Made by a program: the position numbers and the translations under genes. From NCBI GenBank assembly GCA_904501935.1, contig CAJGDA010000001.1:1-32875 (forward strand): DNA of 32,875 nucleotides. Direction: 5' to 3'. The number at the start of each line of letters is the position of its first letter. The stretch's first letter is position 1. The notes under the pieces were generated by a model, which ran no database searches, was not told the DNA's origin, and worked only from the letters and a program-made list of their open reading frames with translations. This document shows positions 6,352 to 22,131 of the stretch, in pieces. Source of the DNA: an uncultured Methanobrevibacter sp. (GTDB lineage: Archaea > Methanobacteriota > Methanobacteria > Methanobacteriales > Methanobacteriaceae).

Positions 6352-7983
6352 ATGTCAACTAGTAAAATTCTATTGAAATTTGCAAAAAAAGGAATCAACC
6401 TATCACCTGAAGCTTATAATAGGGTTATTAATGCTGAAAATCCAATTGATTTTGCATCTTCACTAATAGTTAAACTAAAAAGTGATAAATTCACTTCGAA
6501 GGATTTAGTTTCCGTTAGCGGTGAAATGGTTGATGAAATTACAGGTACTAAAAAAGAAAAGACAGACGACATAAAAGTTACACCCGATGAAACACCACTA
6601 ACCGAATTAGAAGATCCAAAAAAGGAAGTATCCCCAATTGAAGAATTGAAAAAAGATAGTGACAAGCAGGAAAAACATGTAAATGAAGAAATATTAAAAG
6701 CTTCTGAAACTGTTGAGGATACTAAAATTAAATTCAAAAGAAATGAAAAGAAGACCAACGTCAAATATGACTTTAAAATCCTGCAGGACACTTCCAAAAA
6801 ATCATACACAAGCGGGGAACTTGAAAACCTCATCGCTTATTTCAAAAGCAGATATGAAAAGCTTGCCAATATACTACAAAAAAGACCTGAGCTCAGGAAT
6901 TTCACAAAAATAGCTGATATTGACGATTCACAAGAAAACTTAACCCTAATTTTAATGGTCCGTGAAATCAGAACAAGTAAAAACGGTCATAAAATCGTTG
7001 AATTTGAAGATGATACCGGAAGCATTTCAATATTATTCACAAACAAAAACGAAGAATTATTTGCTGATGCTGAAAAACTCGTGAAGGATGAGGTTGTCGG
7101 CGTCATTGCAAACAAAAGTAACGATTCAAACTTTGCATTCGGTCAGCAAATTATCTATCCAGGCGTTTTAAGAATTCCTGAAAAGGAAATGGACTTTGGA
7201 ATTGTATTTTTATCAGACGTTCACATTGGAAGCTTGACATTTCTAGAAGATGCATTCCAAAGATTTATTGATTGGATCAACTGTGAATATGGTTCAGAAG
7301 ATCAAAGAAGAGTAGCCGAAGATGTCAAATATCTCATCATAGGCGGGGATATAGTAGACGGAATAGGCGTATATCCAAATCAGGAAAAAGAACTGGCAAT
7401 TAAAGACATAACACAACAATACAATGAAGCTGCCAAATTTTTAGGAAATATCAGAAGCGATATCAAAATTATCATTGCTCCTGGAAACCACGACGCATCT
7501 AGGGTGGCTGAACCACAACCGGCGGTGCCTCAAGAATATGCAAAAGCATTGTATGAACTCGACAATGTCGAATTTATTTCAAATCCGGGTGTCGTATCTC
7601 TTGATGGAATAAACGTTTTAATTTACCACGGCCGTAGTTTTGACGATCTTGTAATGGCTATTAAAGAATTTTCACATGAAAGAAACGACTTATTAATGGA
7701 AGAATTACTTAAAAAAAGACATTTAGCTCCAATTTATGGTGAAAGAACTCCTCTTGCATCAGAACTTGAAGATTATCTGGTGATTGAAGATATTCCTGAC
7801 GTCTTCCACACCGGCCATGTCCACATTAATACATACAGGAAATTCAAAGGAATTCATTTAATCAACTCAGGTACTTTTCAGACACAGACAGAATTCCAAA
7901 AGATTTACAACATTGAACCGACACCTGCTGAAGTTCCTGTTCTTCATAAAGGAAAATATAAACATTTCAAATTTATTGAATGA
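6352..7983 (+). CDS. polB: DNA polymerase D small (exonuclease) subunit DP1
   Basis: OB-fold (EFEDDTG) plus calcineurin-like phosphoesterase motifs SDVHIGS, GDIVDG, PGNHD, YHG, HTGHVH, NSGTFQ. Confidence 0.95.
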
Positions 7984-12346: not shown

Positions 12347-13510
12347 ATGTCAAATATTTTTGAAGAATTGGAAAGTGAGGAATCAATTGCTCCAACTATA
12401 TTTAAGGATAAGCGTCCTTTAGATCATAGATGGTTGCCTGACAAGTTGGTTCACAGAGAAGACCAAATAAGGCAAATAGCCAAATATTGGGTTGATGTCT
12501 TAGGCGGTGTCACTCCGTCTAATGTTACCCTATATGGTAAAACCGGAACCGGAAAAACAGCCGCATCAAAATTTGCTCGTGAACAGCTTATCGATATTGC
12601 TCGTAAAAAGAATGTTTTTGTGAAAGTTGAATATGTCAGATGCACTGATTATACAACTGAATATCAGGTTATTGCCGAATTGTGTAACAGATTAGGACGT
12701 GATGTTCCAAATCGTGGTTGGACAAAAGGGGAAGTTGTTAATGCATTTAGAGAAATTTTCAGACCTGACGTTTTTGGTAGAAAATTGCATTTGATTGTTA
12801 TCCTAGATGAAATTGACATATTGCTCAATAAAGACGGCGATGGAATATTGTATACCCTTACAAGAACTGGCAATGTTTCTGTTTTATGTATCAGTAATTA
12901 TTTAGACTTTAAAAATTTAATTGATTCCAGAGTTAACAGTAGTTTAAACGATAAAGAAATAGTATTTCCACCTTATGGAGCAAATCAATTGTCTGATATA
13001 TTATCCGAGAGAGCAGAAGTATCATTTAATGAAAATGTATTGGAAGATGATGTTATTCCATTATGTTCAGCAATGGCTGCAAAAGAAGAAGGTGATGCAA
13101 GATATGCTCTTGATTTGCTTAAGAATGCCGGTGAATTAGCTTTTGATGAGGATTCAGATGTTGTTACAATTGATCATGTAAGAAGAGCAAAAGACAAAAT
13201 TGAACATAACAAGATTATTGAAATCATATCCACTTTGCCTCTCCAGCAGCAAAGGGTTTTAGAAGCCATCTTATATTTAACAAAACAAAAAGAAGAGATA
13301 TCTTCAGGTAAACTGTACGATGCCTATACGGATATATCAAAAAAAGACGCTGTTACCTATAGAAGAATTTTTGACTTTATTGGTGAGCTTGAAATGTTGG
13401 GAATCATATCTACAAACACAATTTCCCGTGGACGTGCTAAGGGAAGAACTAACATTATTAAGCTTCAATGTGATGAAACATTACTTGAAACAACTCTTTT
13501 CACTATTTAG
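12347..13510 (+). CDS. cdc6: Orc1/Cdc6 replication initiator
   Basis: Walker A GKTGTGKT, Walker [18 protein letters not shown]-terminal winged helix ([17 protein letters not shown]); RBS AGGTGG. Confidence 0.96.
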
Positions 13511-19440: not shown

Positions 19441-19815
19441 ATGAAAATCGATGGTGAAGTTACAACTGGTTTGGGAAAAGCAGCGTATTTCCTGTCACAG
19501 GAATTCTACACAAATGAGTTTAAGAAAAATTTAGGTTTTGTTCCGTTTCCAGGAACATTAAATGTTGTTGTAAGTGATGACTATTTGGATGGAATCAATG
19601 AAATCAAAAATACCTGTGAAAATTTAATCAAGCCAGATGAAGGCTTTGGTGCCGTAAAATATATTGAAGCAAAATTGAATGGTGTAATTGAAGGTGCCAT
19701 TGTATTTCCAGCAAAAACCACCCATGAAGAAAATTATTTGGAATTTATTGCTGAATGTAAATTAAGGGAAGAATTGAATCTCAAGGATGGGGATGTAGTT
19801 TCTCTTGAATTTTAA
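19441..19815 (+). CDS. ribK: CTP-dependent riboflavin kinase (stand-alone, no HTH domain)
   Basis: G.VTTGLGKA.YF, LGFVPFPGTLNV, P..T.H, LEFIA..KLREELNLKDGD; GAGG RBS. Confidence 0.9.
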   Translation: MKIDGEVTTGLGKAAYFLSQEFYTNEFKKNLGFVPFPGTLNVVVSDDYLDGINEIKNTCENLIKPDEGFGAVKYIEAKLNGVIEGAIVFPAKTTHEENYLEFIAECKLREELNLKDGDVVSLEF

Positions 19816-20015
19816 TTTTCATTTCTAATTTTTTCTACATCTTCAAGTGTTAGTTCTGTTTCTTTTTGTATTTCTTCGTTTGTTTTTCCTTCTTTTATCA
19901 TATATTTTGCCATTTTTTTCTTTCCTTCTTTAATACCTTCTTTAATACCTTCTTTTATTCCTTCTTTTATTCCTTCATCCTTTTGTCTTTGACCGTAATC
20001 GTATATAGCACTCAT
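19812..20015 (-). CDS. Putative in-frame intragenic small protein (67 aa, Rpn-small-like)
   Basis: Internal TAGGTGGAAAAATG on the minus strand (RBS 20020-20025, ATG 20015), in frame with the full gene. Product MSAIYDYGQRQKDEGIKEGIKE...KIRNEN. Confidence 0.55.
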   Translation of the reverse strand: MSAIYDYGQRQKDEGIKEGIKEGIKEGIKEGKKKMAKYMIKEGKTNEEIQKETELTLEDVEKIRNEN

Positions 20016-20675
20016 TTTTCCACCTAATGCATCACATATAGCTGTTTTTTTATCTCCATCTTCTAAAAATTTATCTGCTAATAAATAAGCAATACTTTTT
20101 ACAAGATTATTTACCTTATATTTTTCTAAATCAATAGATAATATTAAATTAACGGATTTTTCAATTTGATGTTCTTGTGTATTTTTACTACCCATAATTG
20201 GCACTAATGATAAATCAATTAATTCATAGTCACTGATTTCTTTATTATTTTTAATTTTAGTTTCAATATTATTTATAATGATATCTCCGTCTTCATCCAT
20301 AAAAGAATAGACATCAAATTTGAATTTAATTGAATCGCCAATAATGTGAATAATCTTTTTTGCTACTTCAGCAGTGCTAATTACTGCTAATTTAACTTCT
20401 TTTTTTGTTTTCTTTTTAAAGTTTACCATTGAAAAGTATGCTAAAAATCTGTTTTTATCATTTATATCTATAGATGTACTTTGAAATTCAATTATATAAA
20501 TTACATCATCTAATTCAATTATTATATCTGCAATTAGTACTGATGCATTTATAAAACGTATTTCTGATGGATTTAACTTTTTCTTTTTTGATTCTATGTT
20601 AATTCGCTTTAAAAGTACTTCTACCTCTTCTTCGCTCACATCTTTAAAAAGTAGGTCTTCGTGTTTGCTAACCAT
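19812..20675 (-). CDS. Rpn/YhgA-like PD-(D/E)XK nuclease (putative transposase) family protein
   Basis: HEDLLFK N-terminus, catalytic-like AD...IIEFQS (D..ExQ), DKNRF..Y, C-terminal (EGIK)n repeats and MAKYM...EEIQKET.LT..DV tail. Visibly lower GC than its neighbours. Confidence 0.7.
   Translation of the reverse strand: MVSKHEDLLFKDVSEEEVEVLLKRINIESKKKKLNPSEIRFINASVLIADIIIELDDVIYIIEFQSTSIDINDKNRFLAYFSMVNFKKKTKKEVKLAVISTAEVAKKIIHIIGDSIKFKFDVYSFMDEDGDIIINNIETKIKNNKEISDYELIDLSLVPIMGSKNTQEHQIEKSVNLILSIDLEKYKVNNLVKSIAYLLADKFLEDGDKKTAICDALGGKMSAIYDYGQRQKDEGIKEGIKEGIKEGIKEGKKKMAKYMIKEGKTNEEIQKETELTLEDVEKIRNEN
19924..19976. repeat. 12-bp tandem repeat encoding (EGIK)x4
   Basis: ccttctttaata x2, ccttcttttatt x2, then partial ccttc. 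Confidence 0.9.
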
Positions 20676-20814
20676 AAAATCACTTTTTTTAGATTATGTG
20701 TTCTTATTTTATTTATAATATTATTTAAATTGCTCAGTTATTAATAATAACAATTTTACATTCTTTAAACAATTTTTTAAGCTCAAAACAATTTATACAC
20801 GAAAACAATCATAA

Positions 20815-20834
20815 CCACAAAGTATTTTATATAT
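20815..20834 (+). promoter_or_regulatory. Archaeal BRE/TATA promoter of the riboswitch-ribB transcript
   Basis: cacaaagta-TTTTATATAT (20825-20834), about 20-25 nt upstream of the aptamer 5' end. Confidence 0.55.
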
Positions 20835-20851
20835 GATTAATATAACTGTTA

Positions 20852-20982
20852 ATATTTACTCGGGGCGGGGTGCAATTCCCCACCGGTGGTGATTTTGTAA
20901 AAATAAGTCCACGAGCACGATTAAGTGTTGATTTGGTGAGAATCCAAAACCGACGGTGATAGTCCGGATGGAAGAGAAATAT
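20852..20982 (+). ncRNA. FMN riboswitch (RFN element) aptamer
   Basis: Conserved RFN blocks in order: CTCGGGGCGGGGTGCAATTCCCCACCGGTGGT...AAGTCCACGAGC...GTTGATTTGGTGAGAATCCAAAACCGACGGT..TAGTCCGGATGGAAGAG. P1 = 20852-20861 with 20974-20982. Directly upstream of ribB. Confidence 0.93.
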
Positions 20983-21032
20983 GTAATTAGTTATTTTTAG
21001 CCCTGGTTCTAGTAAATATAGGAGATATTACT

Positions 21033-21716
21033 ATGAATCAAGAAACAAATTTAGATAAGGCTCTAGAAGCTATTAGAAACGGCGAGTTTGTACTCGTTTT
21101 TGATGATGATGACAGGGAAGGCGAAGTCGATATGATTATCGCTTCCGAATTTGTAACCCCTAAATCCGTTGCAACCATGAGAAATGATGCAGGCGGATTA
21201 ATCTGCAACTGTTTGCATTCTGATTTTTGTGATGCAATTCATTTACCTTTCATGGTAGACATCATGAAGGCAGCAACAGAAAAGTATCCGGAACTTGCTA
21301 AATTGGCACCGACCGATATTCCATATGATGAGAGGTCATCATTTTCCATATGGACCAACCACAGAAAATCATTCACTGGCGTAACCGACCATGACAGAGC
21401 AATGACCATTAGTGAAATGGCATTAATGATGAAAGAAGAAAGATTTGATGAATTCGGGGCTACTTTTAGATCACCTGGTCACGTATGTCTTTTAAGAGGG
21501 GCAGATGGCCTTGTGAAAAATAGAAGAGGACACACAGAAATAGGTCTTGCTTTGTGTGAAATGGCTGGCGTTACTCCTGTTTGTGTAGTTTGTGAAATGA
21601 TGGACGGTGAAACCGGACAAGCTACATCAGTTGCTGATGCTCGCAAATATGCAGAAGAAAATAATTTGGTCTTGCTTAAAGGCGAAGACATCATCAATAA
21701 ATACATAGAGGAATAA
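21033..21716 (+). CDS. ribB: 3,4-dihydroxy-2-butanone-4-phosphate synthase
   Basis: FDDDDREGEVD, DAGGLIC, PYDERSSFS (archaeal-type insert), TGVTDHDRA, FRSPGHV, RRGHTE, CEMM motifs. Confidence 0.95.
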   Translation: MNQETNLDKALEAIRNGEFVLVFDDDDREGEVDMIIASEFVTPKSVATMRNDAGGLICNCLHSDFCDAIHLPFMVDIMKAATEKYPELAKLAPTDIPYDERSSFSIWTNHRKSFTGVTDHDRAMTISEMALMMKEERFDEFGATFRSPGHVCLLRGADGLVKNRRGHTEIGLALCEMAGVTPVCVVCEMMDGETGQATSVADARKYAEENNLVLLKGEDIINKYIEE

Positions 21717-21717
21717 A

Positions 21718-22131
21718 TCAATTCCTCTCATTGCATTTATTTGCAATGTAATCTGCAATTAATTGGGTATTTTGCTTTATTTTATATGAATTATAAATTC
21801 CAAAAGCAACATATTTCCCATCTTTCATTTTAATTTTCAAACCATCTTTAATTTCATTTGACTTATGTATTGAAGCTATTTTTTGCCATTGAATTCTTAA
21901 CGTTTTACTTCCCAACGCTTTTTCAATATGAATTCCATCATCCAAAATTTTCACTATTTTGACGATGCGGCGATTTTTATCCAGTCCGATTTGAATGTCG
22001 CCGTTTTCATCGAAAACATAATCAGGGACCAAACAGGTTGCTTTCCAACCCTGCTTCATCTTTTTTAAAACATGGGCTCTGTCCTTTTTTGTAAGTTTAA
22101 CGCCTGGTTCTGGACTTAAATTGAGTGCCAT
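21718..22131 (-). CDS. Hypothetical protein (basic; possible PH-like beta domain)
   Basis: 137-aa ORF translationally coupled to the upstream gene (stop/start overlap at 22131). Confidence 0.6.
   Translation of the reverse strand: MALNLSPEPGVKLTKKDRAHVLKKMKQGWKATCLVPDYVFDENGDIQIGLDKNRRIVKIVKILDDGIHIEKALGSKTLRIQWQKIASIHKSNEIKDGLKIKMKDGKYVAFGIYNSYKIKQNTQLIADYIANKCNERN

Follow-up and report, generated by a model that had tools for sequence, protein, structure and literature searches.

How does a regulatory RNA that has been regarded as bacterial come to stand in front of a native archaeal gene, and can it be expected to work there? The locus that raises the question lies in a stretch of 32,875 nucleotides, contig CAJGDA010000001.1 of assembly GCA_904501935.1 from an uncultured Methanobrevibacter sp., which was analyzed over its whole length and is called the window below. 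It holds a flavin mononucleotide (FMN) riboswitch aptamer, the RFN element with its stems P1-P6, at 20852-20983 on the + strand, followed on the same strand by ribB (21033-21716), which encodes DHBP synthase, the first enzyme of the DHBP (for 3,4-dihydroxy-2-butanone-4-phosphate) branch of riboflavin synthesis. Our answer is that the element is probably an FMN riboswitch that functions in this archaeon as a feedback repressor of ribB, working by the switch mechanism proposed below and originating in the fusion of a bacterial cassette to the native gene.

Fluoride riboswitches are a class widespread in archaea, and we know of no account of them as a recent cross-domain graft. The one in Thermococcus kodakarensis is a natural archaeal riboswitch, as the element here would be, of another class and with another ligand, and a passage in Born et al. 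2021 (PMC8241225) has the fluoride riboswitch as the only natural archaeal riboswitch tested experimentally. For the FMN class, a statement in Rodionova et al. 2017 (PMC5397151) restricts it to Bacteria, and one in McCown et al. 2017 (PMC5473149) describes FMN examples as "occasionally present" in Archaea, so that presence in archaea is not in itself new. What these passages of Born et al. and McCown et al. say agrees with an earlier note, made from the letters of the window alone, which had called archaeal riboswitches mostly computational and had named in-silico FMN hits in Methanobrevibacter. The literature searched gave no account of FMN riboswitches in Methanobrevibacter or methanogens, nor of this origin, platform, or fusion, though supplementary lists may name such examples. 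What is new here, as read from the sequences, is an element selected across a whole clade, an archaeal promoter set at P1, and a natural leader swap onto a native archaeal gene that left a six-codon scar.

Identity of the aptamer and of its gene

Searched with cmscan against 4227 Rfam families at the gathering threshold, the whole window gives a single match, to the FMN family RF00050 (E = 1.1e-25); it is untruncated and runs over model positions 1-138 of 138. The earlier note had placed an intact FMN aptamer at 20852-20982, one base short of this match, and had proposed the Infernal search that now returns 112.5 bits, well over the gathering threshold of 66.2 and as high as the scores of bacterial members. 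The window's genome has one copy only. Among 14 control genomes, 7 have matches to RF00050, and all 7 are bacterial. Folded alone by RNAfold, the aptamer takes the six-stem fold at -34.8 kcal/mol; its closing P1, which the earlier note had judged formable, does form with one bulged A, and in the register of the model it has three mismatches in the window copy. No open reading frame (ORF) of at least 60 aa overlaps the leader (20676-21032) on either strand. Taken with the platform described below, which is of the enterobacterial ribB type, the element is canonical for the FMN class, and hence of a known kind.

The RibB protein of the window has 227 aa and matches PF00926 with E = 1.4e-58 and TIGR00506 with 258 bits against a cut-off of 177. 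Its best solved structures are 1pvw, 1pvy, and 1snn (227 aa; E = 5e-87), which we take to be the Methanocaldococcus jannaschii enzyme, versus E = 8e-21 for 1g57, presumably the Escherichia coli enzyme. These structure matches make it archaeal-type, and 49 nt separate the aptamer end from the ribB ATG, so the earlier picture of an aptamer some 50 nt before an archaeal-type ribB holds. The same distance is 39-53 nt in 29 of the 30 loci compared in the genus.

Beyond the window's genome, 35 of the 36 genus members searched match RF00050; the one that does not (G008) has a contig that starts 85 nt short of ribB. Of 151 genomes drawn evenly from the family, 57 carry it, spread over 10 of 27 genera. 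Of 151 drawn from the phylum, 62 do, all of them in the window's family, and none of the 15 from the three other families. It is likewise absent from all 24 genomes sampled outside the family, and in some carrier genera only a minority of genomes have it. One genome of the window's genus that was a miss in the phylum draw (G620, 95% complete) gave neither the riboswitch nor a RibB with the window protein as query, and may be a riboflavin auxotroph or have an assembly gap.

Selection on the RNA and the promoter at P1

Pairing was counted by projecting the Rfam structure from the window's row onto an alignment of 69 distinct archaeal aptamers. Overall 93.5% of cells pair, with P2-P6 at 95-100%, and sliding the partners by 1-3 columns brings pairing down to 30-55%. 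Compensatory changes, altering both sides of a pair, are seen at 10 of 28 pairs with at least one such pair in every helix; they amount to 85 cells versus 35.8±4.6 in shuffled alignments, and 0 of 500 shuffles scored as high. P1 is conserved only in its inner five pairs, which read UUCUC/GAGAA in most copies, and the outer three are mostly unpaired. There are 54 invariant columns, mainly junction positions, and these agree with the family consensus. To judge from these counts, the riboswitch is clade-wide and under selection in archaea.

Directly upstream, at 20817-20833 (+), is an archaeal-type promoter made up of an A-rich stretch resembling a B recognition element (BRE) at 20817-20824 and the TATA box TTTATATA, matched perfectly at 20826-20833. 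The earlier note had marked a TATA-like box at 20825-20834, and comparison of relatives confirms it, with a spacing to P1 that is fixed across the genus: a match to TTTATATA in at least 7 of 8 positions ends 23-26 nt before the P1 core in most genus loci, and exactly 23 nt before it in 18. The A-rich stretch precedes the TATA box across the genus, and the upstream block is conserved in relatives. The TATA 3' end and the P1 core at 20857 are 23 nt apart, and by the spacing usual in archaea between TATA box and start, transcription would begin at 20854-20858 (+), on the first bases of the P1 5' strand. A start there fits the short P1 of the archaeal copies, in which the outer 3 bp mostly stay unpaired.

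Metatranscriptome contigs 88-99% alike cover the aptamer and ribB, and two records from two studies (X3 record 17 and X5 record 24) bridge them, running from the aptamer 3' half to the ribB start; they are a weak hint that the two are co-transcribed. Across four RNA runs no contig lies over 20600-20845, where the upstream DNA varies among relatives and where contigs cannot show starts, so they give no start evidence.

The expression platform and the proposed switch

In all genus loci a short variable spacer leads to a T-run, next comes the block GCCCUGGUUCUAGUA, and last AGGAG with UUACU AUG AAU CA behind it. The same elements are present in all other carrier genera, at any linker length. In the window they are a T5 run, the U-tract, at 20994-20998, directly before the block; the block GCCCUGGUUCUAGUAA at 21000-21015; the Shine-Dalgarno (SD) sequence AGGAG at 21020-21024; and the stretch UUACUA-U-GAAUCA at 21028-21040, over the start codon and codons 2-3, all on the + strand. 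The GCCCUG that begins the block is invariant in 68 of 70 archaeal leaders and 69 of 69 bacterial leaders, and no block was found in the other two archaeal loci.

RNAfold pairs the 3' part of the block (21004-21015) with the start region in a predicted sequestor hairpin that buries the AUG and holds the SD in its 12-nt loop. For the platform alone, the window's hairpin is worth -10.4 to -9.4 kcal/mol and that of E. coli -16.7, and the hairpin is the minimum-free-energy fold in 25 of 28 genus loci and 50 of 68 archaeal loci. When sequestor pairs were counted at a fixed register, 131 of 139 leaders were usable and gave 51 distinct strand pairs, of which 43 keep at least 10 of the 12 pairs. One position of the hairpin covaries by lineage, being A-U in the window's group, G-C in 69 of 69 bacteria and in genera g22, g29, and g30 (carrier genera are given by number), and U-A in four g15 loci.

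The block also has a possible partner inside the aptamer. The last P1 base and J1/2 (CGGGGC, 20861-20866, + strand) are complementary to GCCCUG at 21000-21005, and both conservation and RNAfold nominate this as an anti-aptamer pairing. Folding of successive leader prefixes keeps the aptamer fold (-34.8 kcal/mol) until the block is included, and then flips to the anti-aptamer pairing (-41.7 kcal/mol). The anti-aptamer helix and the sequestor hairpin overlap by about three bases. Engaging GCCCUGR weakens the hairpin: the window value goes from -9.4 to -4.0 kcal/mol, that of a relative from -8.6 to -3.2, and that of E. coli from -16.7 to -6.8. Among the 31 ORFs of the window, 12 have SD-like 4-mers at -16 to -4, versus 0 of 31 at a control position; SD-led initiation is thus common in the window, which makes occlusion of the SD and AUG a plausible lever.

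These predictions suggest that the mechanism is most likely an FMN-dependent translational OFF switch, possibly helped by the U-tract. The archaeal BRE/TATA promoter would start transcription at the P1 5' strand or a few bases from it. With FMN bound, the aptamer would keep its own 5' side (P1 and J1/2) to itself and leave the downstream GCCCUG block free, so that the full hairpin GGUUCUAGUAA / UUACUA-U-GAAUC could form and bury the AUG and the next four bases. Confining the SD to the 12-nt loop, the full hairpin would lower initiation, as folding, conservation, and covariation lead us to expect. Without FMN, the block would pair with the aptamer's CNGGGC, breaking the aptamer and stripping the G-C-rich base off the hairpin, and ribosomes would then enter past a hairpin weaker by about 5 kcal/mol. 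The conserved U-tract before the block may add premature termination.

Prefix folds also brought up AUAUUUAC (20852-20859) with GUAAAUAU (21012-21019) as an anti-sequestor. It is not conserved in relatives and is partly upstream of the probable transcription start, and was for these reasons dropped as a general mechanism. Loci of g25 and g28 (L053-L070), with linkers of 44-151 nt, have an extra hairpin directly after the block (AUUCUAG ... CUAGAAU); it competes with the start region for the sequestor 5' strand and wins the minimum-free-energy fold in 6 of 11 g25 loci.

The nearest known system is the ribB FMN riboswitch of E. coli and other enterobacteria, which is of the same aptamer class and, like that of the window, controls ribB alone. 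Both open their coding sequence with ATG AAT CA, and in both UUAC(Y)AUGAAUC at the start codon forms a hairpin with the block GCCCUG(R)UUCU(R)GUAA; the annotated E. coli genome has block and start as GCCCUGAUUCUGGUAAC ... UUACC AUG AAU CAG, and 68 other bacterial leaders are alike. The differences are that the window has the BRE/TATA promoter with its predicted start at P1, that its linker is 16 nt with a T5 run where that of E. coli is about 50 nt with a ACUCCUAAG segment, and that a G-C pair of the bacterial hairpin is A-U in the window's, which is the weaker of the two (-9.4 versus -16.7 kcal/mol). The coding body differs also: the enterobacterial leader controls a bacterial-type RibB of about 217 aa, a feature met again in sister genera of the window's, and the window has the archaeal type.

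A proposed origin by cassette transfer and fusion to the native gene

Those sister genera bear on where the leader came from. In g15, g17, g20, g22, g25, g28, g29, and g30 the gene behind the riboswitch encodes a bacterial-type RibB of 207-220 aa, one of which has its best solved structures at E = 1e-91 to 4e-89 versus 4e-23 for 1pvw; in the window's genus and in g31 the same leader precedes an archaeal-type RibB. The cassette of the sister genera shares the T-run, block, and start region of the window, and differs in its gene and in linkers of 16-151 nt. The P3 and P5 sequences of the aptamer group the window with g15, g17, g25, and g28. The bacterial-type RibBs of these genera are 60-71% identical to proteobacterial RibBs.

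The body of the window's gene is of another descent. Used as query against 151 genomes of the family, the window RibB finds an archaeal-type RibB in all riboswitch-less genera, at 53-72% identity and aligned from residue 6-7. The native archaeal ribB starts M-L/I-D/N/K-K-A-L, and it aligns to the window gene only from codon 7. The window reads ATG AAT CAA GAA ACA AAT and then TTA GAT AAG GCT CTA GAA, and from codon 7 it is colinear with the native gene from codon 2 onward (native ATG TTA GAT AAA GCT TTA GAA). Bacterial-type ribB genes of the sister genera begin ATG AAT CA(A/T) GAA, matching the first six codons of the window (M N Q E T N; 21033-21050, + strand), which we read as a graft scar of bacterial-cassette origin; these codons include those of the sequestor 3' strand. 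A native-like body behind six cassette-like codons makes the window ribB a chimera.

The place of the fusion is given by the neighboring gene ribK (19441-19815, + strand), which encodes a monofunctional CTP-dependent riboflavin kinase of 124 aa with no domain of the winged helix-turn-helix type (wHTH) (PF01982, E = 4e-35; 112 bits to NF040694, under its cut-off of 168). The gene precedes ribB, on one strand with it, in 26 of the 30 genus loci and in all 16 native archaeal ribB loci examined from other genera. Ancestrally, ribK is followed by ribB and then by a convergent cobQ-like gene. The same succession is found in the window's genus, where promoter and riboswitch have come to lie between the first two.

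Homology, distribution, synteny, and junction can be seen directly in these genomes; from them we infer the order of the gain and fusion events. Riboswitch, platform, and first codons would have arrived from a bacterial, proteobacteria-like ribB locus together with the bacterial ribB, and in the lineage of the genus the leader with six codons would then have been joined to the archaeal ribB already there, in its native place behind ribK. On its distribution, the cassette event is old and clade-wide, not recent. The earlier note had proposed a bacterial regulatory RNA grafted onto a native archaeal gene; the graft stands, on the strength of leader homology, the native locus, and the six-codon scar, and what was transferred was apparently not a bare RNA but a riboswitch-ribB cassette.

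Carrier genomes differ in what they have kept. Only a bacterial-type RibB was found in g25, g28, and g17, and in g17 and g28 its gene is divergent from ribK and the native ribB was not found. Among riboswitch-bearing genomes, those of g22, g29, and g30 and part of those of g15 have both RibB types. Nine genomes (G069, G076, G129, G141, G171, G192, G199, G088, and G122) have two ribB genes, a bacterial-type one under riboswitch control and a native archaeal-type one in the ribK operon without a riboswitch; such genomes are possibly the intermediate before loss or fusion.

Weighing the proposal and its alternatives

Several points count against a functional riboswitch with this mechanism and origin. 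The P1 of the window is weak, with an A where relatives have U and a bulge needed to close it. In the ligand-free equilibrium fold the AUG stays paired (its A and G have an unpaired probability of about 0.05), and anti-aptamer helix and hairpin coexist in the fold of minimum free energy. The E. coli control does likewise and also fails to release the AUG, so the computation may be blind to the switch, which in these models appears as a weakening of about 5 kcal/mol rather than as release; kinetics may matter. The anti-aptamer helix is only 6 bp long, and its aptamer strand is invariant, which puts the helix beyond the reach of a covariation test. Three loci of the window's genus (L016, L020, and L024) keep aptamer and block and have lost ATG AAT CA, their ribB starting ATG AGT, and no hairpin is predicted for them; a hairpin that can be missing while the aptamer is kept is not indispensable. 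The RNA contigs derive from relatives, and such libraries can contain DNA, which is why we draw no more from them than a weak hint. As to origin, a tree of 51 bacterial-type RibBs has two archaeal groups (supports 100/99 and 100/98) and the bacteria (83/0) meeting at one node, which separates the three groups and leaves one transfer and two transfers indistinguishable. Finally, no close bacterial donor was found among bacterial RibBs, the nearest being 60-71% identical. With this distance, and with some carrier genera mostly lacking the riboswitch, the gut or rumen setting that the earlier note had imagined for the acquisition is not upheld.

The alternative that survives best is that the riboswitch is mainly transcriptional, the polymerase stopping with FMN bound at the U-tract 20994-20998, either intrinsically or through an archaeal termination factor after translation is blocked. 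We consider this unlikely. A T-run of 5-8 is found within 14 nt upstream of the block, directly before it, in 63 of 68 archaeal leaders and is kept amid variable spacers, and it is absent from 66 Enterobacterales leaders. One Shewanella leader has a T-run, behind a hairpin and so like an intrinsic terminator. A search of 401 gammaproteobacterial genomes with the pattern TTTTTGCCCTGRTTCT gave 4 matches, of which only that of the centre genome is a ribB leader, and none further. Oligo-T tracts terminate archaeal transcription, and a stop at the tract would be the counterpart of a known arm of the control of E. coli ribB. That gene is monocistronic and is controlled at translation together with Rho-dependent termination; its control through Rho is stated in published passages. 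Set against it, only 3-21 nt lie between P1 and the T-run in the genus, which leaves no terminator hairpin and no visible antiterminator; T5 is short, and T-runs accumulate by drift in AT-rich genomes; the run reads equally well as prolonging the anti-aptamer helix by G·U/A-U pairs onto the 5' strand of P2; and RNA contigs cross the tract into ribB, though contigs cannot show 3' ends. The U-tract may be an inherited terminator remnant still readable by the archaeal polymerase, or a wobble extension of the anti-aptamer helix.

A more ambitious version of the translational switch would have the bacterial riboswitch fully domesticated, with archaeal polymerase and TATA box at P1, a gate that sequesters the AUG, a U-tract coupling blocked translation to archaeal termination, and the six-codon scar marking the leader swap from a foreign to the native gene. 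Taken as a whole this is speculative and we would not bet on it. If true, the U-tract coupling would rebuild the second, Rho-dependent arm of E. coli from archaeal parts, be it oligo-U or an archaeal termination factor. To our knowledge there is no Rho in archaea.

It is very improbable that the aptamer senses some other flavin or deazaflavin, such as Fo or riboflavin itself. Nothing supports such a change directly, and what speaks for it is the metabolic setting, with the same pyrimidine precursor feeding F420. Against it, the window copy scores as high as bacterial members, the 54 invariant columns, mostly in junctions, match the consensus, and the gene under control belongs to the branch specific to riboflavin. 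Still less credible, and already disfavored, is a decaying relic of a transferred bacterial leader with no regulatory role. The imperfect P1 of the window and the three relatives without a sequestor might be taken for decay, but the element is kept in 35 of 36 genus genomes and in 10 genera with compensatory changes in every helix, its spacing to the TATA box and to ribB is fixed, and its platform is conserved in non-coding DNA.

The identity of the genome bears on the last alternative. The assembly is of 1.53 Mb in 181 contigs, 82% complete with a contamination estimate of 0.71%, and neither archaeal 16S ribosomal RNA (RF01959) nor mcrA (PF02249) was found in it, so its archaeal identity rests on other genes and on relatives. 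The 32.9-kb window contig encodes the archaeal PolD small subunit (NF003120, 780 bits) and Orc1/Cdc6 (TIGR02928, 399 bits), and also a DUF2115 protein besides the CTP-dependent riboflavin kinase. Closed genomes of the genus that consist of a single contig (G018, G124, and G182) have this locus too, which rules out contamination. A bacterial contaminant contig or chimeric assembly, for which one could cite the incomplete, 181-contig state and the undetected 16S ribosomal RNA and mcrA, has a negligible chance and is already refuted by synteny across genomes, as archaeal replication genes share the contig with archaeal-type ribK and ribB, the same arrangement recurs in the closed genomes of the genus and in 29 other species, and estimated contamination is low.

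Meaning of the locus

Returning to the functional riboswitch that we favor, the locus would fill a gap. RbkR, the archaeal riboflavin kinase and regulator, is described in part of the literature as giving FMN-responsive control of riboflavin genes in archaea, as the riboswitch would here; it is a protein with a wHTH domain, where the window has the 124-aa kinase alone with an RNA sensor adjoining. According to a passage in Rodionova et al. 2017 (PMC5397151), Methanobacteriales lost the DNA-binding (wHTH) domain of RbkR, and an RNA sensor would thus stand where a protein sensor was lost. Natural variants, namely the cassette, the fused form, the sequestor-less loci, and the genomes with both ribB genes, make up a comparative series for a bacterial platform under archaeal transcription and translation. 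In these organisms F420, a deazaflavin, is made from the same pyrimidine precursor as riboflavin, and from what is known of the pathway, control of ribB alone would be sensible. FMN riboswitches are antibacterial drug targets (the roseoflavin class), and one that is conserved in the methanogens of gut and rumen could offer a way to act on their growth.

Neighboring genes

Two ORFs on the - strand flank the riboswitch and ribB. One, of 287 aa (19812-20675), lies between ribK and the riboswitch promoter and has no Pfam match; its C-terminal part has a weak likeness to the Rpn family of recombination-promoting nucleases/transposases (TIGR01784, E = 1e-7, below cut-off), and among the 30 genus loci it is present only in the window and in L012, at 82% identity. 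It looks like a mobile insertion. The other, of 137 aa (21718-22131), lies between ribB and the cobQ-like gene and matches no family, and it is conserved at 55-87% identity in the genus and at 47-49% in g18, the nearest riboswitch-less genus by RibB identity.

Farther off, the PolD small subunit gene is at 6352-7983 and the Orc1/Cdc6 gene at 12347-13510, behind an intergenic region of 600 nt; the segment 11745-13510 may be a replication-origin neighborhood. Cobamide genes (cbiH, cbiG, cbiB, and the cobQ-like gene) are scattered across the window.

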